NCBI GenBank assembly: GCA_001775555.1
Contig: MEXE01000037.1
Location: 1-35,959 of the forward strand
DNA length: 35,959 bases
Origin: Candidatus Amesbacteria bacterium RBG_19FT_COMBO_48_16
GTDB taxonomy: Bacteria; Patescibacteriota; Microgenomatia; CAZETR01; Amesbacteraceae
Direction of reading: 5' to 3'
The notes beneath the pieces are model-generated. The model searched no databases. It was given only the letters and a program-made list of their open reading frames with translations, and was not told where the DNA came from. This document shows, in pieces, positions 1 to 13,192 of the stretch. Positions within the stretch are counted from its first letter, which is position 1. Every line of letters begins with the position of its first letter. The position numbers and the translations under genes are program-made.

Positions 1-9
1 TTTCGGGAA

Positions 10-33
10 CTAATTGGGGTAGTGGTATTTTTT
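10..33 (-). repeat. Degenerate copy of the secA 3' terminal 24 bp (att-like scar)
   Basis: ctaattggggtagtggtatttttt matches 2788-2811 at 20/24; on the minus strand it reads KKYHYPN* versus secA KKCHYPN*. Confidence 0.8.
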
Positions 34-44
34 TAATAGTTTAT

Positions 45-875
45 TTATTTGACTGTTTGGCTAAGTCCAGCAATAACATGTCTTTTTAATATTTGAGGAT
101 CAATTTTGATATCTAATATGGTCTCTAGTACAACCAGTCCCTGGTAAGTAAACATATCCCATCCAGTCGCATTCTTCTTCTTTAGCTTTCTGGCTATCGT
201 TATTAAGTTTGTGTCTTCTGTTTCGAATGTAACGTCCGATACAGCGTTAAAGTTTCTGACCACTTTTTCAGTGAATATATTATCCACTACGCTACCTCCC
301 AAGTGAGTAGCATTAATCAGAACGTCACCTCTTATACTGCTAATATCTTTGATCTCTCCAACTTCTTTTACAAAATTATACTTATTAAATTCTTCAAGTT
401 TGGAAATTGTTCGATTTAAAACAATAACACTTTTAGGTAAATTCGCAAGCTTCGATATTTCTGATAATAAAGATTTCACAACGTTACCAGCCCCAACAAT
501 TACAAGTTCTTTACCTGCTACAGAAGTAACTGATTGAACCGAGAGCAATTGGCCCTTACCACCCTGATAATAGCCCTTAAGCTTCCCGTTTTCATTTTTT
601 ATAAACCCTACCCGATTGACTATCCTAGATGATTCATCATGCTCATCAACCAGTTTTGCAAAATCAGCATCAGTTTCAAATCCAACTGTAACAGCACCAG
701 AGAAATTAAGATTTTTTATTCCGTCTACAAGAGGTTTGGGGTCAGAATTATAAAAAAGCAGGAACACTGCATTAATACCAGCTTCTTCGAAAAATGGGTT
801 ATAAATATTTAATGCACGAGGACTGAGCTGTTTGTGCAACCGGGCAATTACTTTAGTATTACCATCATTTATCAT
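45..875 (-). CDS. Shikimate dehydrogenase (AroE)-fold protein, divergent active site
   Basis: LSP near the N-terminus, GAG-N glycine loop, NRTxxK NADP motif, INAT and GWDMFTYQG; the catalytic Lys and Asp motifs are not recognisable. Confidence 0.75.
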   Translation of the reverse strand: MINDGNTKVIARLHKQLSPRALNIYNPFFEEAGINAVFLLFYNSDPKPLVDGIKNLNFSGAVTVGFETDADFAKLVDEHDESSRIVNRVGFIKNENGKLKGYYQGGKGQLLSVQSVTSVAGKELVIVGAGNVVKSLLSEISKLANLPKSVIVLNRTISKLEEFNKYNFVKEVGEIKDISSIRGDVLINATHLGGSVVDNIFTEKVVRNFNAVSDVTFETEDTNLITIARKLKKKNATGWDMFTYQGLVVLETILDIKIDPQILKRHVIAGLSQTVK

Positions 876-1047
876 TTAAGTAAGTTAAATTATATACCAT
901 GTGGTTACGGGTGATTATTGGGAACTGGACCAGCATGACTGGATGTTGAAGTGCGAAGTGGTGAATTAAAAAAGGGCTGAATAAAGCTTTTGGGTCTGGG
1001 ATGATAATTGCGATTGAAATGATTTAACATGCAGGCTGGTTGTTTCG

Positions 1048-1062
1048 TCCCGCAGAGCGGGA
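1048..1062. repeat. Short REP-like hairpin TCCCGC-AGA-GCGGGA
   Basis: Perfect 6-bp GC-rich stem downstream of the antitoxin gene, no U-tract. Confidence 0.5.
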
Positions 1063-1088
1063 TTACTACCGAACCTATTTAAAAACAC

Positions 1089-1382
1089 TCAGGGAGCGTG
1101 TTTCACCTGCAGGTTGAATTCCTCCTTCACTTTTTCATCAAGATATATCTTCACCAAGGACTGATACGGAACATCCTTTTTGTTGGCGATCATTTTAAGC
1201 GATGAGAGCATGCTATCCGGGACTCGGATAGTTATCACTTTTGTCGATGGCTTTAAATTTGGGAGGGATGGGCTTACTATGGCCCGATTTATATCGAAAT
1301 AGTCTGTGGTATCGTACGTTGCCCAAAAATCGGCCTCCTCATCCTCATTTTTAAATTTAGGAATCGTCTTTAGCTTTTTCAT
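1089..1382 (-). CDS. brnA: BrnA/CopG-like antitoxin (type II TA)
   Basis: IPKFKNEDEEADFW N-terminus and RHH-like ITIRVP...VPYQSLVK; overlaps the toxin stop by 1 nt (TAATG). Confidence 0.85.
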   Translation of the reverse strand: MKKLKTIPKFKNEDEEADFWATYDTTDYFDINRAIVSPSLPNLKPSTKVITIRVPDSMLSSLKMIANKKDVPYQSLVKIYLDEKVKEEFNLQVKHAP

Positions 1383-1687
1383 TAATTATCACCTCCCGCT
1401 AAATGGAATTCTTTTTCTTCCTTCCGTTTTAGGTCTCTAGCAGAAATAACCCGAATATTGTTGTTCCTAATAGTAAATATGAGACACAAAACTCTCCTTT
1501 TGTTTGTCTGGCCGTAAACACGAAACCTCTTTTCTGCTTGGGAATGTGTTTCGTCAGGATTAAGAATCAAAGGTTTGTTGAAAAATACAGCTTCGCATTC
1601 CCTGTGGTTAACTTTGTGTTTTTTAATGTGCTCGAGATTTCCACTGTCCCATTTGAACCCAGATAATTTAGACAGATCAAAAGCCAT
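1382..1687 (-). CDS. brnT: BrnT family ribonuclease toxin
   Basis: FKWDSGN...KHKV...ECEAVF...HSQAEKRF...IRVISAR motifs; toxin-first gene order. Confidence 0.9.
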   Translation of the reverse strand: MAFDLSKLSGFKWDSGNLEHIKKHKVNHRECEAVFFNKPLILNPDETHSQAEKRFRVYGQTNKRRVLCLIFTIRNNNIRVISARDLKRKEEKEFHLAGGDN

Positions 1688-1690
1688 TTA

Positions 1691-1727
1691 TGTATTTAAT
1701 GATACAATACAGGATATTTGCTGTCAA
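1691..1727 (-). promoter_or_regulatory. Sigma70-type promoter of brnTA with overlapping inverted repeat (putative autorepression operator)
   Basis: TTGACA (1727-1722)-17 nt-TATCAT (1704-1699); inverted repeat TGTATT 1691-1696 / AATACA 1706-1711 straddles the -10. Confidence 0.75.
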
Positions 1728-1807
1728 TATCCTCAACTTGCCTCGGTTTGCATAGCTAGCCGCGTGGGGCATATACTCAAAAACCCTCGTAAGCAGCCTG
1801 CAAATTC

Positions 1808-1833
1808 AAGCGAAGCTTTCGCTTTGCGAGCGA
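1808..1833. repeat. REP-like overlapping hairpins
   Basis: AAGCGAA-GCT-TTCGCTT (1808-1824) and the alternative TCGCT-TTGCG-AGCGA (1819-1833). Confidence 0.4.
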
Positions 1834-1850
1834 CTTTGTTGGTTATAGCC

Positions 1851-1874
1851 CTAATTCGGATAGTGGCATTTCTT
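1851..1874 (-). repeat. Exact copy of the secA 3' terminal 24 bp (att-like scar)
   Basis: ctaattcggatagtggcatttctt is identical to 2788-2811; junction dyad GCATTTC-TT-GAAATGC at 1866-1881. Confidence 0.95.
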
Positions 1875-1907
1875 GAAATGCTAGTTGAATAAGGTACCTC
1901 ACAGGAA

Positions 1908-2537
1908 TTAACTTTTTGTGGTTATTTTGACTAGTGATTCGCTTAACGCTCTTCCTATTAGATTTTCTAATTTCTCGTAGTTGCTATCGTCGGCTGAATA
2001 CATGGCTTCTAGGTATTTCTTTCTATCTAGGCCTGTATCAGCTTTTATTTCAACCGGGGGTAAATTTAATTTTAGTAAAATTAAGATGGTAAGCATGCGA
2101 GCTACACGACCATTGTAGTCTTGGAATGGATGAATCCAAACGAAACGGTGTTGGAACCAAGCCAAGAGTTCTACTACTTTGTTGATAAAATTTTCATCTT
2201 GAGTAATAAGGTGCTTGAGTCTTTCTTGTAAATCTGCACATAAATTTGCTATTAACTCGGGAATTTGGTGAGGTAAGACCGCTTCTTTTCCTGAAAATTC
2301 AACCCTTATTTTACGATACTTTCCTGCCCAGCTGGGAAATATCCAGCCGAAAGCTTCTTTATGGATAACTAGAATTAAATCGGGAGTAATTTCCTTTTTG
2401 AATATTTTGGCAACTAGCTCAAGTCCCTTCTTGGTTCCTTCAAGCTCTATGTGCAGAAGTTTAGATCTGGGGATGATTCCAAACGCTGTTTCTCTATAAG
2501 TGGTGGCTCCTTTTGGCTTAGTTGATATCTTTTTCAT
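1908..2537 (-). CDS. Fic family protein (putative class I Fic toxin)
   Basis: Fic motif HPFQDYNGRVAR; AGKYR flap region. Confidence 0.9.
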   Translation of the reverse strand: MKKISTKPKGATTYRETAFGIIPRSKLLHIELEGTKKGLELVAKIFKKEITPDLILVIHKEAFGWIFPSWAGKYRKIRVEFSGKEAVLPHQIPELIANLCADLQERLKHLITQDENFINKVVELLAWFQHRFVWIHPFQDYNGRVARMLTILILLKLNLPPVEIKADTGLDRKKYLEAMYSADDSNYEKLENLIGRALSESLVKITTKS

Positions 2538-2701
2538 CCAAAAATTGATTTTACTATTTTTCTGGTTACCGGTTCACCTTCTAATTTAGTTGTCCGAAAA
2601 ATAATTTCGGGCATAAATGAACGCAAAAAATCCAAGACCCTTTTTTGTTCTTTAGACCTTTTTTGATATTTTAGATAGTTTCTTTTGAGGTTTTTCTTCA
2701 T
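2534..2701 (-). CDS. 55-aa Fic antitoxin (VbhA/FicA-like), absent from the ORF track
   Basis: Hand translation MKKNLKRNYLKYQKRSKEQKRVLDFLRSFMPEIIFRTTKLEGEPVTRKIVKSIFG; TTKLEG fits the (S/T)xxxE(G/N) inhibitory motif; ATGA overlap with fic; TG-A-TATAAT 6 nt upstream. Confidence 0.85.
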   Translation of the reverse strand: MKKNLKRNYLKYQKRSKEQKRVLDFLRSFMPEIIFRTTKLEGEPVTRKIVKSIFG

Positions 2702-2787
2702 AACGAAATTATATCATCAGAGGTGTAATATATGGACAAATTGGAAAAGAGAGCTGTTAAAAACGAGCTGGCTGAGTCACATAGTCT

Positions 2788-5550
2788 CTAATTCGGATAG
2801 TGGCATTTCTTATACTTTTTTCCTGAGCCGCACCAGCAGGGGTCGTTGCGGCCGAGATTCTTGCGGGGATTGTCGACACCGCCTTTTTGGAGAGCGGAGA
2901 AAGCGGACATGAAGTCGCCCGGAGGGGGCTGGTTATTAGTTATTGCCTCAGGGTTCACCGCTTCCGCCTGTGCCAGGGCAACGGCGGATGCATCGGGTTT
3001 AATTTCGACCATCTGCGGCGGGGGCTGGACGGGGGGAGGAGCGCCGACCTGGATACGGAAGAGGCGTTTGCTAAATTCGGATTCGATCTGGGTCACCAGC
3101 CTTTCGAACATGGAAAAAGCCTCGCCTTTGTATTCCACCAAGGGATCGCGCTGGCCGTAACCGCGCAGACCAATGCCGGAGCGGAGATCGTCCACGGCGT
3201 CCAGATGATCCATCCAGAGATTGTCTATGGAAGAAAGATAAGCGTATTTGATAATCTCACCCCAGACCGGGTCGCCGACCTGGGCTTTTCTTTGAGTCGC
3301 GGCGTCGGTAATAATTTGACGGGTGAGCTTGATAATTTCTTCGGCTGTTCCCAGTTTTTTGATCTGGTCAGTCAGGGACTTTTGGGAAACATCATCAAAG
3401 GGGACTATTTCCACCAGGGCGGTGGTTATGGGCAGGACTTCGGATTCGATGATGCCTTTGGGGGCATACATATTTACCACATTGGTGACCTGGTCAGACA
3501 ATTTGTTAATTATTTCCTCATCGGGAATTTCCCCGGCTAATACCCTGTGGCGCAAACCGTAAATAATCTCGCGCTGTTTGTTCATAACGTCGTCGTACTC
3601 GACCACGTGTTTTCTGGCGTCGAAATTGAAGCCTTCCACCTTGACCTGGGCTTGTTCGATAGCTTTGCTGACCATCCCGTGCTCGATGGGTTCGGACTCG
3701 GGAATTTTGAGAAAGCCCATGATTTTGGCCACCTGGTCGCCGCCGAAAATGCGCATGATGTCATCATCCAGGGCAAGATAAAAACGGGTAGAGCCGGGAT
3801 CACCCTGGCGGCCGGAGCGGCCGCGCAGCTGGTTGTCGATGCGGCGGGATTCATGACGCTCAGTACCGATAACATGCAAACCCCCCGAAGAAACAACCTC
3901 GTCATGAGCGGCTTGCCACTGGGCCAACTGTTTGGCATATTGCTTGTCGGTAAGTTTGTCTTCCCCTAAAACAAATTTGGGATTGGGCGGAGGAGTGCCG
4001 CCCAAAACAATGTCCACGCCGCGGCCGGCAATATTGGTAGCGATGGTGACAGCGCCCTTGCGGCCCGCTTCGGAAATGATGGTAGCTTCCTGTTCGTGGT
4101 TTTTGGCGTTTAACAGCGCGTGGGGAACCCCCTTGTGTTTGAGAAGACCGGACAGGACTTCGTTTTTTTCAATAGAGGTAGTGCCTACGAGAATCGGCTG
4201 GCCGCGCTGGTGACAGCCGGCAATTTCTTCGGCCAGAGCGGTATATTTGGCGGGGGTATTTTTGTAAACAATGTCCGCGTTATCGATTCTGACCATCGGT
4301 TTGTGAGTGGGGACGATGACCACGTCCAGTTTGTAAATTTTTTGGAACTCTTCGGCTTCGGTGGCGGCCGTGCCGGTCATGCCGGCCAGCTTGGTGTACA
4401 TGCGGAAATAATTTTGGAAAGAAATGGTAGCCAAAGTCCTGGACTCCTGCTGAATGGTGACGTTTTCCTTGGCTTCGACTGCCTGGTGGATGCCTTCCGA
4501 CCAGCGCCGGCCGGGCATAAGACGGCCGGTGAATTCATCGACGATGATTACTTGGTTGTCCCTGATAATGTAGTCTTTGTCGCGGATAAACAAAGTCCGT
4601 GACTTGAGGGCATTTTCCAGATGATGAATGGTGTCGAAATCTTTTTCGTAGAGATTGTCCACGCCCAGCAGTTTTTCCACCTTTTTGATACCGTGCTCGG
4701 TGAGGTTGGCGGTCCGATGCTTTTCGTCAATCACATAGTCGGTATCGCCGGAGAGGCGGTCGACTAATTTGGCAAACTCGTAATATTTTTGGGTGGGCTC
4801 GGTATCGGGGGCGGAAATGATCAACGGAGTCCGGGCTTCGTCGATCAAAATCGAATCCACCTCGTCGACAATGGCGAAGTGATGGCCTCTCTGGGACATG
4901 TCTTTTAGGTTCCCGACCATGTTGTCCCGCAAGTAATCGAAGCCAAACTCGTTGTTGGTACCGTAAGTAATATCAGCCGCATAAGCTTCCTGACGGGTAA
5001 CAGGGCGCAGGTGGGCCAGCCGGTCGTCGCCGTGGGCAGGGTCAAAAAACTCAGGATCGTAGAGAAGAGATTTCTCATGCATAATGACTCCGACCGACAG
5101 GCCCAAAAGATGAAAGGTGGGACCGTTCCAACCGGCGTCGCGGCGGGCCAGGTAATCGTTGACCGTTACCAGATGGGCTCCCTTGCCGGACAGGGAATTG
5201 AGATACAGGGCGGGAACGGCGGATAAAGTCTTGCCTTCACCCGTTTTTTGTTCGGCGACCTTACCTTCGTGAAAGGCGGTCGCGGCCATGAGCTGAACGT
5301 CAAAGGGGCGAAGACCGATGGCCCTTTCACTAGCTTCCCGGACCAAAGCGAAGGCTGGGGGTAAAAGATCGTCCAAATTTTCCCCTTCGGCCAGGCGGTG
5401 TTTGAGATCGGCGGTATACGCGGCAAAGTCCTCGGCATTTTTGAGACGGGAAAACTTGTCGGTCAGGGTATTGATTTCGTTTACCCGCAGCTGCAAACGG
5501 TTGATTTCCTTTTGGTTGAGATCTAAGAATTTGTTGAGAAATTTGAACAT
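2788..5550 (-). CDS. secA: Preprotein translocase ATPase SecA
   Basis: KTGEGKT Walker A, DEVDSILIDEARTP, TNIAGRGVDI, QLRGRSGRQGDPG and C-terminal SEC-C GRNDPCWCGSGKKYKKCH. Confidence 0.99.
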   Translation of the reverse strand: MFKFLNKFLDLNQKEINRLQLRVNEINTLTDKFSRLKNAEDFAAYTADLKHRLAEGENLDDLLPPAFALVREASERAIGLRPFDVQLMAATAFHEGKVAEQKTGEGKTLSAVPALYLNSLSGKGAHLVTVNDYLARRDAGWNGPTFHLLGLSVGVIMHEKSLLYDPEFFDPAHGDDRLAHLRPVTRQEAYAADITYGTNNEFGFDYLRDNMVGNLKDMSQRGHHFAIVDEVDSILIDEARTPLIISAPDTEPTQKYYEFAKLVDRLSGDTDYVIDEKHRTANLTEHGIKKVEKLLGVDNLYEKDFDTIHHLENALKSRTLFIRDKDYIIRDNQVIIVDEFTGRLMPGRRWSEGIHQAVEAKENVTIQQESRTLATISFQNYFRMYTKLAGMTGTAATEAEEFQKIYKLDVVIVPTHKPMVRIDNADIVYKNTPAKYTALAEEIAGCHQRGQPILVGTTSIEKNEVLSGLLKHKGVPHALLNAKNHEQEATIISEAGRKGAVTIATNIAGRGVDIVLGGTPPPNPKFVLGEDKLTDKQYAKQLAQWQAAHDEVVSSGGLHVIGTERHESRRIDNQLRGRSGRQGDPGSTRFYLALDDDIMRIFGGDQVAKIMGFLKIPESEPIEHGMVSKAIEQAQVKVEGFNFDARKHVVEYDDVMNKQREIIYGLRHRVLAGEIPDEEIINKLSDQVTNVVNMYAPKGIIESEVLPITTALVEIVPFDDVSQKSLTDQIKKLGTAEEIIKLTRQIITDAATQRKAQVGDPVWGEIIKYAYLSSIDNLWMDHLDAVDDLRSGIGLRGYGQRDPLVEYKGEAFSMFERLVTQIESEFSKRLFRIQVGAPPPVQPPPQMVEIKPDASAVALAQAEAVNPEAITNNQPPPGDFMSAFSALQKGGVDNPRKNLGRNDPCWCGSGKKYKKCHYPN
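2963..2988. repeat. In-frame palindrome in the SecA C-terminal linker (SAVALAQAE)
   Basis: TCCGCC-N14-GGCGGA inverted repeat in a low-complexity linker. Confidence 0.45.
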
Positions 5551-5564
5551 AGTGAAAATTAACT

Positions 5565-5610
5565 CCCCCTGTCATCCCCCTCTTAATCTAAGAGGGGGAA
5601 CTAAAGGGGG
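5565..5610. repeat. REP-like palindrome in the secA 5' leader
   Basis: TCCCCCTCTTA-ATC-TAAGAGGGGGA perfect 11-bp stem, outer CCCCCT/AGGGGG; lies between TATAAT (5631-5626, minus) and the secA ATG. Confidence 0.8.
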
Positions 5611-5637
5611 TGATATCGAACTCTTATTATACCTGTT

Positions 5638-6357
5638 TTAGCTACAAATAATCAGCAGGTTGGTGAGGACGCGGTGAAGCCGGACAGAGGGAAATATCTT
5701 GCCCAGCTTGGCTACCAACTGACTGGCCGCTTGGCGTTTGGGGGGGTCGTAAAAGAGATGATTGAGAATAACTAATTGACCCTCCCCATCTTGCCATTCG
5801 CCTTTAGGATCTATTCGATCACGGCTCATGGAGCGATGTTGGGAGGGCAGGCCTAATTGACGCAATTTTTTTAAGAACTTCTCTGAATATACAAAACCCG
5901 GGAGACGATCGCCGAGATAGAGATCCACCAGGATAACATCATATTGGTCTCTGGTCGTTAGCAGATAGTCTTTAGCGTCATTGATGATTATTTTTAAATT
6001 CATAATTTTGTCCAAATCAAAATATCTTTTACCGATATAAATCATGACCGGGTCGATTTCGACACCGGTTATTTTTTTGGGCTGAAACCAGCCGGAGATC
6101 ATCTGCGCGGCCGTTCCGGCTCCCAAACCGAGAATAAGCCAGGATTTAGAGGTTAGGTTATAGGTTTTTGAGATCTTTTTAAACACCGATTCCCAGACAT
6201 TTTTGACCAGTCCCCCACTCTGGGTCAGGCCGCCGGTGGATACATAGACAGAATTACCTGTCCGGACGACCTGAATAGGCCCACAGAATTGTGACTGAAC
6301 TTCGTAAATAACCTGCGGGGAGAAAATTGAGCGGAGGTTAAGGGGCATTGAGATCAC
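5638..6357 (-). CDS. SAM-dependent methyltransferase / spermidine synthase-like protein
   Basis: LILGLGAGT motif I, GVEIDP, NDA, YDVILVDLY; exact start uncertain. Confidence 0.85.
   Translation of the reverse strand: MISMPLNLRSIFSPQVIYEVQSQFCGPIQVVRTGNSVYVSTGGLTQSGGLVKNVWESVFKKISKTYNLTSKSWLILGLGAGTAAQMISGWFQPKKITGVEIDPVMIYIGKRYFDLDKIMNLKIIINDAKDYLLTTRDQYDVILVDLYLGDRLPGFVYSEKFLKKLRQLGLPSQHRSMSRDRIDPKGEWQDGEGQLVILNHLFYDPPKRQAASQLVAKLGKIFPSVRLHRVLTNLLIICS
5772..5861. repeat. In-frame palindromic insertion in the methyltransferase gene
   Basis: CCCTCCC (5780-5786)...GGGAGGG (5841-5847) imperfect hairpin flanked by CTAATTGAC direct repeats 81 bp apart. Confidence 0.7.
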
Positions 6358-11233: not shown

Positions 11234-12724
11234 CTAAGGTGAATGGGTCTTTGAGGATGAAAAAGGGCGGAGGGTAGGGAAAAGAATGACTTCTTTGATA
11301 ATGGGGGTGTTGGTAAACAGCATTACCATTCGATCGATACCGATTGCTATTCCACAAGTTGGCGGAAAACCATGTTCAATAGCTTCTAGGTAGTCATAAT
11401 CTGTTTGATGGGCTTCTTCGAATCCGGCTTTTTCTCTTTTCTTTTCTTCAATAAATCGCTGATATAAATCCAGTGGATCATTTAATTCTGTATAGTTATT
11501 ACCCAGTTCGGAACCGAAGGCAAACATTTCAAATCTCTGAGTAAATCTTGGATCGGGACATTTTTTAGCCAAGGGAGAAATTTCGATAGGATAGTTGTAT
11601 ATAATTGTTGGTTGGACAAGCTTTTCTTCTACGGCTTCCTCAAAAACAAACGCGATAATTTCGCCAATTTTATTCAATTTATTGAGCAATTTTAATTTTT
11701 CTTTGGGAATTTCCAGCTTTGAGATGGCGATTTTTGCTTCCTCAGTCGTTTGCCAATCTAAAGGATTTAGATGACAAAATTCTTTGATAGCTCCAACATA
11801 GCTGTATCTTTTCCAAGGCCGTTTTACATCCATTGCTAAACCCTGGTAATTAATTTGAGTGGTACCTAGTACTTTTTTGGCCGCATACTCAAATATTTCT
11901 TCGATCATGTCCATCCCATACTGATAATCTTGAAAAGCTATCATAGCTTCAAACATGGTAAATTCCGGATTATGGTCATGATCCACTCCTTCATTTCTAA
12001 AGACCTTAGTAATCTCGTACACTTTCTCAAATCCACCGACAATTAGTCTTTTTAAGTACATTTCATCCGAAATTCGCAGATAAAAATCGCTACCCAAGAC
12101 TTCGTGGTGAGTAATGAATGGTTTGGCAAAACCTCCGCCATATATGGGTTGAAGAGTGGGGGTTTCAACTTCTAAAAAACCTTTGGTGTCCAGGTATTTT
12201 CGAATAGATGATATAATTTTAGTTCTGAGTTCGAACTTAGTTTTTATCTCCGAATTTAATAGCAAATCCAAATATTTTTTGCGATATCGCTCTTCGACGT
12301 CTTTCAGACCATCCCATTCGTTGGGTATGGGGCGCAGAGTTTTGGCAAGAAGCTCGAAATAGGCTATATCGATCGTGATTTCACCCGCCTGGGTAGTAAT
12401 GATTTCGCCGGAAACACCCAGGAAATCTCCCACATCAAAATACTGCAGGAGGTCAAATTTGTCCGCCAGTTTATTTTTGGCAAACATGAGCTGAATTTCA
12501 CCCGTTGCGTCACGCAGATCGGCAAAAATTACCTGCCCGTGCTGACGCCAGCGCCAGAGACGGCCGACTGTGGAGACGCTCTTGCCGTGTTTCTGGCGAG
12601 CGCTAGAGACAGAGATAGAGACTTGCGAATACTTTGACGGGTAGGGATCGATACCGAGACTGCGGAGTTTGGCCAATTTTTGCAAACGGATATTACGTAT
12701 TTCCTCAAGACGGGAGTCGGCCAT
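11234..12724 (-). CDS. lysS: Lysine--tRNA ligase (class II)
   Basis: OB-fold N-terminal domain, FLEVETP, FRNEG...HNPEFTMFE, ELGNNYTELNDP, GIGIDR. Confidence 0.98.
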   Translation of the reverse strand: MADSRLEEIRNIRLQKLAKLRSLGIDPYPSKYSQVSISVSSARQKHGKSVSTVGRLWRWRQHGQVIFADLRDATGEIQLMFAKNKLADKFDLLQYFDVGDFLGVSGEIITTQAGEITIDIAYFELLAKTLRPIPNEWDGLKDVEERYRKKYLDLLLNSEIKTKFELRTKIISSIRKYLDTKGFLEVETPTLQPIYGGGFAKPFITHHEVLGSDFYLRISDEMYLKRLIVGGFEKVYEITKVFRNEGVDHDHNPEFTMFEAMIAFQDYQYGMDMIEEIFEYAAKKVLGTTQINYQGLAMDVKRPWKRYSYVGAIKEFCHLNPLDWQTTEEAKIAISKLEIPKEKLKLLNKLNKIGEIIAFVFEEAVEEKLVQPTIIYNYPIEISPLAKKCPDPRFTQRFEMFAFGSELGNNYTELNDPLDLYQRFIEEKKREKAGFEEAHQTDYDYLEAIEHGFPPTCGIAIGIDRMVMLFTNTPIIKEVILFPTLRPFSSSKTHSP

Positions 12725-12733
12725 GAAGTGATT

Positions 12734-13192
12734 TTACTCGATGGTTACGATGGTGTACAGAATCTTACCCGCGGGAGCAGTGACTTCCACTTTGTCCCCG
12801 ACTTTCTTGCCAATCAAAGCCTGACCCAGTGGTGAAGACATAGAGATCTTCTTTTCGGCAGGATCGGCTTCCCACTCCCCCACTATTTTGTAAACCACGT
12901 GGGTTGAGTTCACCCGGACGGTGACGGTGTGGCCAAAGCTAATTTGGGAATTAGAAGACGGGGTTGTCACCTTGGCAATTCTGATAATATCCTCGAGCTC
13001 GGCAATACGGCCGTCTATAAAAGTCAGCTCTTCCTTGGCACTAATGTAATCGCTATTCTCGGACAAATCACCCATATCACGGGCGGCGGTTAAGCGGGCT
13101 ACCTGGGCAGGGCGGCGGTTATCGACCAGATCCGCTAACTCGGCCTTGAGAGTATCCAAGCCGGCTTGAGTGATGAGTATGTTTTGGTGCAT
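12734..13192 (-). CDS. greA: Transcription elongation factor GreA
   Basis: ARDMGDLSENSDY, IS..SPLGQALIGKKVGD. Confidence 0.98.
   Translation of the reverse strand: MHQNILITQAGLDTLKAELADLVDNRRPAQVARLTAARDMGDLSENSDYISAKEELTFIDGRIAELEDIIRIAKVTTPSSNSQISFGHTVTVRVNSTHVVYKIVGEWEADPAEKKISMSSPLGQALIGKKVGDKVEVTAPAGKILYTIVTIE

Follow-up and report, generated by a model that had tools for sequence, protein, structure and literature searches.

A tandem array of small gene cassettes anchored in the last codons of secA, with no linked recombinase, in a Candidatus Amesbacteria genome

The DNA stretch analyzed here, called the window, is 35,959 nucleotides long and is the entire contig MEXE01000037.1 (C37) of Candidatus Amesbacteria bacterium RBG_19FT_COMBO_48_16, a small groundwater bacterium whose genome (G000) amounts to 0.91 Mb in 56 contigs. 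G, C, L, and X denote a genome, a contig, a fetched sequence stretch, and a sequencing run, respectively. Positions 10–2811 of the window, next to the gene secA, appear to hold a tandem array of three small foreign cassettes, which carry an antitoxin and a Fic protein, a BrnT/BrnA pair, and a shikimate-dehydrogenase-like protein. The evidence supports the view that such arrays recur across the class, rooted in the final codons of secA and without a linked recombinase, and that this region is one example. It probably arose by site-specific accretion, in which each cassette would bring a replacement secA end and the recombinase would act in trans.

The protein encoded by secA matches the Pfam domains SecA_DEAD (1e-113), P-loop_SecA, SecA_SW, SecA_PP_bind, and SEC-C (1.5e-10), so that the DEAD motor, the preprotein-binding region, the wing/scaffold, and the C-terminal SEC-C zinc finger are all present. 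Its C-terminal end reads ...CWCGSGKKYKKCHYPN, and the last codons, AAG AAA TGC CAC TAT CCG AAT TAG, encode KKCHYPN. The sequence CTAATTCGGATAGTGGCATTTCTT is found at 1851–1874 and at 2788–2811 with 24/24 identity, the latter being the reverse complement of these codons. The sequence at 10–33, CTAATTGGGGTAGTGGTATTTTTT, reads KKYHYPN*. The gene and the three copies of its end (core copies) are as follows.

2788–5550, minus strand: secA, a 920-aa open reading frame (ORF) with a SEC-C zinc-finger tail ending in KKCHYPN*
2788–2811, minus strand: core copy 1, the working secA end, AAGAAATGCCACTATCCGAATTAG; proposed as the half of the attachment site brought by the newest cassette
1851–1874, minus strand: core copy 2, identical to the secA end at 24/24 positions
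10–33, minus strand: core copy 3, 20/24, KKYHYPN*, the most distal copy, where the assembly breaks

The exact secA-end pattern is expected 0.00 times in 100 shuffles, and the window has three copies with up to four mismatches, where 200 Markov-1 random windows have 0.0 on average. The exact and the 20/24 copies reported in the first-pass annotation, which was made from the letters of the window, are thus borne out. That annotation also took copy 3 for an older secA end. Three of the four differences between copy 3 and the present secA end are synonymous third-position changes, and the fourth, TGC to TAC, converts a zinc-binding Cys to Tyr. An internal copy in G022, a genome of the same genus, matches copy 3 at all but 2 of 24 positions, which fits the proposal, and copy 3 is probably a displaced older secA end. 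Degraded copies, which take the forms KKYHYPN*, QKCHYPNK, and KKCHYPQL, lie mostly in distal positions in the host genome and in G022.

The three-copy repeat is genuine and not an assembly artifact, a possibility that the first-pass annotation had raised. Logan contigs of the runs X1 (4115 nt) and X14 (3967 nt) are colinear through all three secA-end copies and extend approximately 930–960 nt beyond the start of the window. A contig from a JGI metagenome (L118, 4847 nt) shows 99.95% identity over window positions 1–3977, is likewise colinear through the three copies, and extends 870 nt beyond the start. X1 may be the source sample of the host genome. The start of contig C21, taken as its reverse complement, overlaps the first 53 nt of C37, which shows that C21 is the leftward continuation of the window. 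Past copy 3, the GC content of C21 returns to approximately 0.5; the value is 0.436 in C21:1–500, and the AT-rich island may therefore extend slightly past copy 3. The first 9 kb of C21 encode YdjM, peptidase-like, tRNA-binding, glycosyltransferase-like, and Clp-like ATPase proteins and an acylphosphatase-like ORF, and contain neither an integrase or other recombinase nor an additional secA-end copy. The description of the array as integrase-free thus holds over this extension as well. When L118 (1–960) is compared with C21 (1–420), L118 has an intact gene for a 159-aa DnaQ-like exonuclease and a 110-aa ORF after copy 3, both of which are truncated in C21 by deletions (approximately 440 nt at the DnaQ-like gene, and approximately 70 nt). 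This strain variation just past copy 3 is probably the reason why the assembly breaks there.

The cassette genes of the window are listed below.

1875–2787, minus strand: cassette A, 913 nt, containing a 55-aa ORF and a Fic gene, GC content approximately 0.38
2534–2701, minus strand: the 55-aa ORF, a likely antitoxin gene that overlaps and precedes fic; no family match
1908–2537, minus strand: the Fic-domain gene (Pfam E 3.8e-16), 33 nt from core copy 2
1089–1687, minus strand: cassette B genes brnT and brnA/CopG, a BrnT/BrnA toxin–antitoxin pair
1382–1687, minus strand: brnT (Pfam BrnT_toxin, 4e-20)
1089–1382, minus strand: brnA/CopG antitoxin gene (Pfam CopG_antitoxin, 3.8e-27; NCBIfam BrnA, 6.7e-11, below the cut-off)
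45–875, minus strand: cassette C, a shikimate-dehydrogenase-like (aroE-like) gene of 276 aa, whose ORF ends 11 nt from copy 3

All five cassette genes are co-oriented with secA. The GC content of the array is 0.373, against 0.528 in the 3 kb on the secA side and 0.495 in the 3 kb beyond the array, in agreement with the AT-rich blocks noted at first pass. The distances after the last cassette genes given there, 33 nt for fic and 11 nt for the aroE-like gene, likewise agree with the ORF ends at 1908 and 45. brnT and brnA overlap by one base and constitute type II toxin–antitoxin cargo. Within NCBIfam, the Fic protein matches best with 'mobile mystery protein B', below the cut-off (E 1e-14). The aroE-like protein scores 24.6 bits with Pfam Shikimate_DH (cut-off, 24.3) and 99 bits (2e-28) with NCBIfam aroE (cut-off, 200). 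Within window 1908–2701, the active-site loop of the Fic protein is HPFQDYNGR, in which Tyr presumably occupies the position of Gly in the usual motif, and the TTKLEG sequence in the 55-aa ORF resembles the Fic-inhibiting helix motif of Fic antitoxins.

The positions at which the cassettes meet the secA-end copies should be noted, since they define the proposed site. When the flanks of all copies are read in the coding orientation, the first copy is always preceded by secA codons, while the later copies are preceded by a cassette tail, TGTGnGGTACC-N9-10-T[GA][GA]CA[CT]TTC, that abuts the core. The tail of cassette A and a probable degenerate junction are located as follows.

1875–1905, minus strand: cassette tail, cctgtgaGGTACC-N10-TAGCATTTC, with GGTACC at 1893–1898 and the L arm at 1875–1883
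880–1000, minus strand: probable degenerate junction, with a leader at approximately 890–945 (..ccagttcccaataatcacccgtaaccacatggtatataat) and CACTTC-like remnants before it; no core copy

The junction in the window reads cctgtgaGGTACCttattcaacTAGCATTTC|AAGAAATGCCAC, where the bar marks the boundary. The L arm abuts core copy 2 and takes part in the inverted repeat TAGCATTTC-AA-GAAATGCCA. The dyad GCATT-N6-AATGC noticed at 1866–1881 in the first-pass annotation is present and turns out to be the inner part of this larger inverted repeat, which belongs to a junction conserved across 18 aligned sites. These are 18 non-proximal copies that align with TGTGnGGTACCCTATTTrrCTrrCAyTTC directly upstream of the core; GGTACC is exact in 12 of them, the boundary is TTC|AARAA, and the conservation ends at the stop codon. 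A composite motif, GGTACC-N7-12-TRRCAYTT[CY]AARAA, matches the window at C37:1870–1898. Among the 27 family genomes, it gives eight matches in six genomes, each within a secA array, and in the class sample (described below) it gives 17 matches in 14 of 401 genomes belonging to nine families, with a control of 0/401. A stricter form of the motif finds only seven stretches across GTDB (one genome per species), whose titles name Candidatus Amesbacteria (three), Candidatus Roizmanbacteria (one), and Gammaproteobacteria-labeled metagenome-assembled genomes (three). In the IMG/VR viral contigs, the junction pattern has no match. The L|R pattern alone, searched class-wide at two mismatches, produces approximately 50 control matches, so that only rows with 0–1 mismatch were kept, as leads.

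The junction is conserved in sequence rather than in fold. RNAalifold gives no consensus structure or pairs for the 18 junctions, and their single-stranded DNA folds are no better than those of shuffled sequences (z of −0.4 to −1.7); an attC-like folded site was rejected on these grounds. Rfam at the gathering threshold finds nothing in the junctions or leaders of 14 loci, its only hit being an AdoCbl riboswitch elsewhere, and at E ≤ 1 it finds nothing in window positions 1–6000. The riboswitch, AdoCbl-II at L040 (G009) 199–272 on the minus strand (above gathering at 44.3 bits), is a few kb away from the secA of G009 and has nothing to do with the array.

A leader of approximately 50–150 nt that ends with ..ggtaaccacatggtataaat is common to several cassettes that differ in other respects. 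A conserved leader stretch of approximately 50 nt, CCAGyCTCAnTGrTCyAGTT..GTAACCAyaTGGTAtAAAT, stands before unrelated genes at window 890–945 and in L040, L043, L044, L045, L050, and L039. The leader may act as a promoter, with a −10-like box of the extended kind, or as an accessory site for recombination. In G001, two copies are separated by 146 nt that consist of leader and tail and contain no gene. In the window, the leader at approximately 890–945 aligns with those of six other cassettes (MAFFT), and this position, ahead of the aroE-like gene, is the sole occurrence of the leader motif in the host genome. Hence block 34–1850 is probably two cassettes, between which the core would have been lost. 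The two blocks of the first-pass annotation, antitoxin–fic and brnT–brnA with the aroE-like gene, are therefore retained as to gene calls, while the second is probably to be divided.

Two further features of the copies were observed. KKYHYPN* occurs in distal copies in three families (window 10–33; L066 of G027, 1002–1025; and L067 of G197, 4444–4467). The three copies share the Cys-to-Tyr change TGY>TAY, which affects both a zinc ligand and the R arm of the junction; either the mutation has recurred, or a 'dead' terminal site has been selected. In addition, 'doublets' of two secA-end copies only 48–88 nt apart are seen at L041 (G013) 4878–4956, in L048 (G007) and L054 (G017), twice in L065 (G027), and at copy 2 of L045 (G024), with variants in L060 (G068) and L059 (G028). 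In the doublets, the stop codon is followed by the KKC codons in reverse complement, in co-variation with the codons themselves (GAAGTGTCA/TGACACTTC and GCGATGTCA/TGACATCGC). Next come a small hairpin that is conserved (..GTCCTGAGCGAAGTCGAAGGAC, the same in two families) and, after it, the second copy. The hairpin of the doublet in G024 is situated exactly between the L arm and its core.

Copies of the secA end recur in relatives of the host. The search pattern, AARAARTGYCAYTAYCCNAAYTAR, is a codon-degenerate form of KKCHYPN* that tolerates third-position changes; as the copies were selected with it, their per-position variability was not counted as synonymous drift. At up to two mismatches, 20 of the 27 family genomes match, with a reversed-pattern control of 0, and in eight of these 20 there are two or three copies on the same strand, at spacings of 55 nt to 8.4 kb. 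At up to four mismatches, at least two copies are found in 11 of the 20 fetched loci and one copy in the other nine. In an even sample of the class (401 genomes), 105 genomes match, and 14 of the 401, belonging to families f1, f3, f8, f14, f27, and f47, have two or three same-strand copies on one contig, while the control gives seven single matches. Every multi-kb array is richer in AT than its flanks, and 17 of 24 main ORFs, which we selected from seven arrays, are co-oriented with secA.

The content between the copies is variable. The array of G022 has at least five copies over approximately 18 kb, and its matches to the locus in the window are limited to secA and a 74-nt junction, with none of the cassette genes of the window. 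The cargo of other arrays includes MntA/HepT, HNH homing endonucleases, a 100-aa FtsK-gamma protein, glycosyltransferases, and GH26-like, cytochrome-b5-like, and radical-SAM/SPASM proteins, as well as many proteins without a Pfam match. Particular attention should be paid to G010, in which a block directly follows secA, the same block being located in G022 behind 8.4 kb of other cassettes. The shared block starts at the first base of the core with 86.8% identity over 114 nt, followed by 92.8% over 3944 nt, and the similarity runs to the end of the G010 contig, whereas the secA genes of the two genomes are 74% identical. This pair therefore serves both as a comparison of empty and filled sites and as evidence of transfer between genera. 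G033, which has one copy, presents the same picture at lower identity against G345 (a 1.4-kb insert) and against G197. The downstream neighbors in the host genome (tRNA-binding, GT39-like, and Clp-like genes) are also present in G001, G004, G020, and G007, at varying distances from secA. The fixed synteny that would have spoken against the accretion of cassettes is accordingly not seen in the relatives. In the complete 818,817-bp genome of another family (G088), secA ends in KKCHYPDPGPN*, and the distal copy, preceded by ..TAGCACTTC (also given as ..ctatttggcTAGCACTTC), mimics the entire longer tail up to the stop codon. This would be expected if the copy has to be capable of completing secA.

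Antisense HNH homing-endonuclease genes were observed directly after secA at L039 (G002) 4698–5300 on the minus strand and L042 (G019) 475–1140 on the plus strand, with HNH_repeat scores of 4e-9 and 1.6e-12, respectively, and an HNH-related 102-aa remnant is at L044 (G022) 12609–12917 on the plus strand. The antisense HNH gene is linked to a variant, longer secA tail, ..CGKKKPDGTPVKYKHCHYPN*, and in G002 and G138 the relic of the old tail extends upstream past 24 nt. HNH genes at secA may represent a second, homing-type mechanism at the same site.

The anatomy of the arrays, the conservation of the junctions, the variable content, the empty and filled sites, and the horizontal sharing of blocks are direct observations. 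From them, we infer a crossover point, an order of arrival, an enzyme, and activity in the present day. The cassettes would be inserted successively by conservative site-specific recombination at an attachment site that overlaps the last eight codons of secA. Each cassette would be arranged as a secA-end copy up to the stop codon, often a leader, one to a few genes mostly oriented like secA, and a conserved tail. The sequence shared among the junctions begins at AA after the tail ...TTC and ends at the stop codon. Since the right limit tracks the stop codon, as expected under selection for finishing secA, strand exchange would occur at the left edge, at or beside AA, between the tail and the secA-end copy. 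An exchange at the left edge implies that the incoming copy becomes the new working secA end and the old end is displaced behind the cassette, so that the newest cassette would adjoin secA and the distal copies would be older secA ends. The recombinase would be located outside the array and supplied in trans. The sequential accretion of cassettes at the SEC-C coding end, as put forward at first pass, is thus supported by the relatives, the conserved junction, and the variable content.

Several observations weigh against this proposal. No recombinase is tied to the site by position or co-occurrence. The 'synonymous-only' appearance of the internal copies is partly built in, because the search pattern is codon-degenerate. 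The L and R arms lack strict co-variation across the junctions, although the model does not demand it, and 6 of the 18 aligned copies are degraded. A left arm similar to a cassette tail is lacking on the secA side of the site, which means that a classical two-armed attB is missing. Neither an excised circle, such as the 937-bp one suggested at first pass, nor an empty-site joint was seen for the host genome in the assembled contigs. The empty-site joint expected, 1874>2812, is not among the Logan joints listed (15 of 32), and only one JGI metagenome contig with a secA–core junction was found, carrying the full array in the same context. Many arrays may be old and static. With regard to excision, the Logan contigs of X9 and X12 end exactly at both exact copies and leave a 973-nt piece (1845–2817); these ends could be strain variants, and no joint confirms this. 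A joint 1883>2836 listed in X12 (side 20) does not match the expected product and possibly comes from a relative.

The host genome encodes three tyrosine recombinases (on C17, C32, and C23) and one large serine recombinase (on C8), none of which is located on C37 or C21. The proteins of C17 and C32 are XerC/XerD-like, and the same two paralogs are present in every family genome with matches. None of the 10 other array genomes has a tyrosine recombinase on the stretch of contig that holds the array, and arrays have neither a tyrosine nor a serine recombinase beside them, the closest lying 19–41 kb away. Because they are universally present in the array genomes examined, the two Xer-like tyrosine recombinases lead the candidates for the cassette enzyme, an assignment that is tentative and somewhat less likely than not; a serine recombinase or an enzyme of another kind may act instead. 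The geometry, with short inverted arms on either side of AA, would be compatible with a tyrosine recombinase as well as with a serine recombinase. A serine recombinase as the universal enzyme is weakened, since a Resolvase-domain gene was not found in three of the 10 array genomes (G002, G062, and G104, two of which are 99–100% complete).

The tyrosine recombinase of C23 was also considered and rejected as the cassette enzyme, because its homologues do not coincide with the junction motif. Its gene (C23:1–801, L006) is open at the contig start, in a low-GC contig end. The protein is XerA/IntI-like below both cut-offs; for the integron integrase, its score is 205 bits and the cut-off 265. In the 26 other family genomes, no homologue exceeds 32% identity. 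Homologues with 52–69% identity are patchily distributed over 12 of 400 other class genomes, and these 12 do not include any of the 14 genomes that have the composite junction motif. There is no core-like site on C23, and the recombinase looks like part of a separate mobile element.

In the array of G022, a gene at L044 12087–12389 on the minus strand encodes a 100-aa protein with a coiled coil and an FtsK gamma domain (Pfam 9.6e-18). The FtsK gamma domain activates XerD, and this protein is a lead for the involvement of Xer; no such protein was found in the other fetched arrays.

A chromosomal dif or terminus site at secA was rejected on the basis of GC skew. In G088, the skew flips at approximately 190 kb and 650 kb, while the secA end is at 407.6 kb, and no flip is found across C21/C37. 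The array is thus located away from the skew switch in both the host and G088 and is not the dif site of the chromosome. In G006, no flip lies within 10 kb of secA, although this is uninformative, since the skew is negative nearly throughout the 1.0-Mb contig. The samples of this contig (C1 of G006; 20 × 20 kb, L078–L097) show a skew step at approximately 480–500 kb with no change of sign, which is unusual for a near-complete genome.

Other explanations of the secA-end copies should be weighed here. The copies might be fossils, that is, eroded and immobile remnants of larger integrase-bearing elements (prophage- or ICE-like, ICE being an integrative and conjugative element) that once targeted the secA end. 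The lack of an integrase in or near any array, the degraded state of several copies, the gene remnants past copy 3 that are intact in another strain, and the excision product not being seen are all in line with this idea. However, the cassettes are uniformly small and share the same tail of approximately 30 nt in nine families, which random deletion would not yield, and the 146-nt unit of G001 consists of leader and tail only. Moreover, no integrase-bearing version was found in the 11 genomes or in the viral contig collection, and the exact 24/24 flanking copies together with the 93%-identical block shared across genera point to recent events, so that fossils are unlikely. Homologous recombination, in which the junctions of approximately 60 nt and secA would serve as portable homology and blocks would be swapped like 'minimal mobile elements', is somewhat less likely still. 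It would account for the failure to find a dedicated enzyme and for junctions conserved in sequence and not in structure, and an exact repeat of 24 nt is near the minimum length for RecA-type exchange. Replacement, on the other hand, creates no direct duplication of the target end. The left boundary is fixed to the nucleotide (TTC|AA), the right one tracks the stop codon even with a tail longer by 12 nt, and the tail motif is not derived from secA and yet is conserved with inverted-repeat geometry.

The HNH genes suggest homing, in which a free-standing HNH gene cuts secA alleles that lack it and repair brings in a copy of the gene along with a replacement tail, while the old tail persists as a relic. 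The position of the antisense gene as the first cassette in G002 and G019, the remnant in G022, the variant secA tail of the HNH genomes, and the longer relics in G002 and G138 would all follow. Against this, the window has no HNH gene, nor do most arrays with a tail–core junction, and the HNH block of G019 is itself bounded by an L-arm|core junction, so that HNH looks like a passenger or a second mechanism at the same site. We thus consider homing very unlikely as the origin of the arrays. A transposition-like process with staggered cuts 24 nt apart and fill-in would generate a target-site duplication, and on either side of the newest cassette there is indeed an exact 24/24 copy with a sharp end. 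The length of the duplication, however, follows the stop codon (approximately 36 nt in G088 versus 24 nt in the window), the two ends of a cassette do not form inverted repeats with one another, the arrays examined contain neither a transposase gene nor a Cas1-like gene, and the tail mirrors the target itself. Such a process is the least probable of these explanations.

The genomes of candidate-phyla bacteria are tiny; to our knowledge, descriptions of mobile elements in these bacteria are few, and their acquisition of accessory genes is poorly understood. The end of secA, an essential and highly conserved gene, would provide a fixed site for docking that is common to at least nine families and where cassettes accumulate and are exchanged across genera; these carry toxin–antitoxin pairs, a homing endonuclease, glycosyltransferases, and many unknown membrane proteins. 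The analysis yields a defined DNA site of 60 nt and a short list of candidate enzymes. The junction is a simple marker of the flexible gene pool in metagenome-assembled genomes, whose assemblies are prone to break precisely at the array. If the Xer-like enzymes of the host are responsible, the hijacking of Xer would extend to a non-terminus site within a coding sequence, and if an integron-like platform at secA is real, cassettes could move between genera. The titles and abstract openings of the papers retrieved in literature searches mention no cassette arrays or integration at the secA end and no integron-like arrays in these phyla.

Among known systems, integrons and clusters of attC sites lacking integron integrases (CALINs) resemble the secA arrays in their tandem small cassettes, mostly of one or two co-oriented genes, in the frequency of toxin–antitoxin pairs and unknown genes, in the recombination site that ends each cassette, and in that the newest cassette is probably nearest the platform. 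The attC sites of integrons are imperfect inverted repeats that fold as single strands, with the boundary in GTTRRRY, and the attI site lies beside intI. In contrast, the platform at secA is the coding end of an essential gene, the junction has TTC|AARAA in place of a GTTRRRY boundary, and IntI was not found beside the array in the host or the 10 other array genomes. The secA cassettes also often have a conserved leader ending in a −10-like box.

Modules bounded by pdif sites often carry toxin–antitoxin pairs including brnTA, and these sites alternate in orientation and are located on plasmids, whereas the secA copies are all direct repeats and chromosomal. As the titles and abstract openings of the reports present them, pdif modules of Acinetobacter plasmids are like the secA cassettes in having 1–2 kb modules, short recombinase sites as bounds, and no recombinase of their own (PMC7399989), and integrative mobile elements exploiting Xer (IMEX; CTX-phi, TLC-phi, and the gonococcal island) and Legionella LME-1 are integrase-free elements at dif that stand in tandem at one chromosomal site, flanked by direct repeats, and use host recombinases in trans (PMC6744903, PMC5357621, PMC9765430). 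The secA arrays likewise carry no recombinase of their own, and two Xer-like paralogs that might act on the junction are present in the family genomes with matches. Unlike the IMEX site, the site at secA is away from the terminus and inside a protein-coding end, and the units are gene cassettes of 0.15–5 kb, not phages.

In Streptococcus thermophilus, cis-mobilizable elements (CIMEs) accrete beside ICEs at the 3' end of fda, and in staphylococci, staphylococcal cassette chromosome (SCC) and pseudo-SCC elements stand in tandem at the 3' end of rlmH (orfX). These elements and the ssrA islands of Dehalococcoides are similar to the secA arrays in that the 3' end of a conserved gene is targeted, restored, and duplicated, and units accrete in tandem, some of them having no recombinase and relying on one in trans; accretion of this general kind is the subject of PMC5704250 and PMC3146451, as far as their titles and abstract openings indicate. 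They differ in having a cognate integrase-bearing element (Int, Ccr, or a serine recombinase) in the array or the species; none for the secA site was found in the 11 genomes or in the IMG/VR contigs searched with the junction pattern. The secA units are also smaller by an order of magnitude and have one conserved tail across at least nine families.

The orphan C-terminal modules of rhs and cdiA provide a further parallel, as a new gene end displaces the old one and the relic keeps the conserved junction sequence. There, the swapped end is a new toxin tip acquired by homologous recombination, while at secA the protein end is unchanged and the payload follows the stop codon. The secA array thus shares its logic with integrons, Xer-exploiting elements, CIMEs and ICEs, SCC, and the ssrA islands, and is a member of none of them. 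It is conceivable, though somewhat short of an even chance, that it represents an integron-like gene-capture platform of the Microgenomates-type candidate phyla that works without an integron integrase, with its site in the SEC-C zinc-finger codons of secA and served in trans, away from the terminus, by housekeeping Xer-like enzymes or an unrecognized enzyme family.

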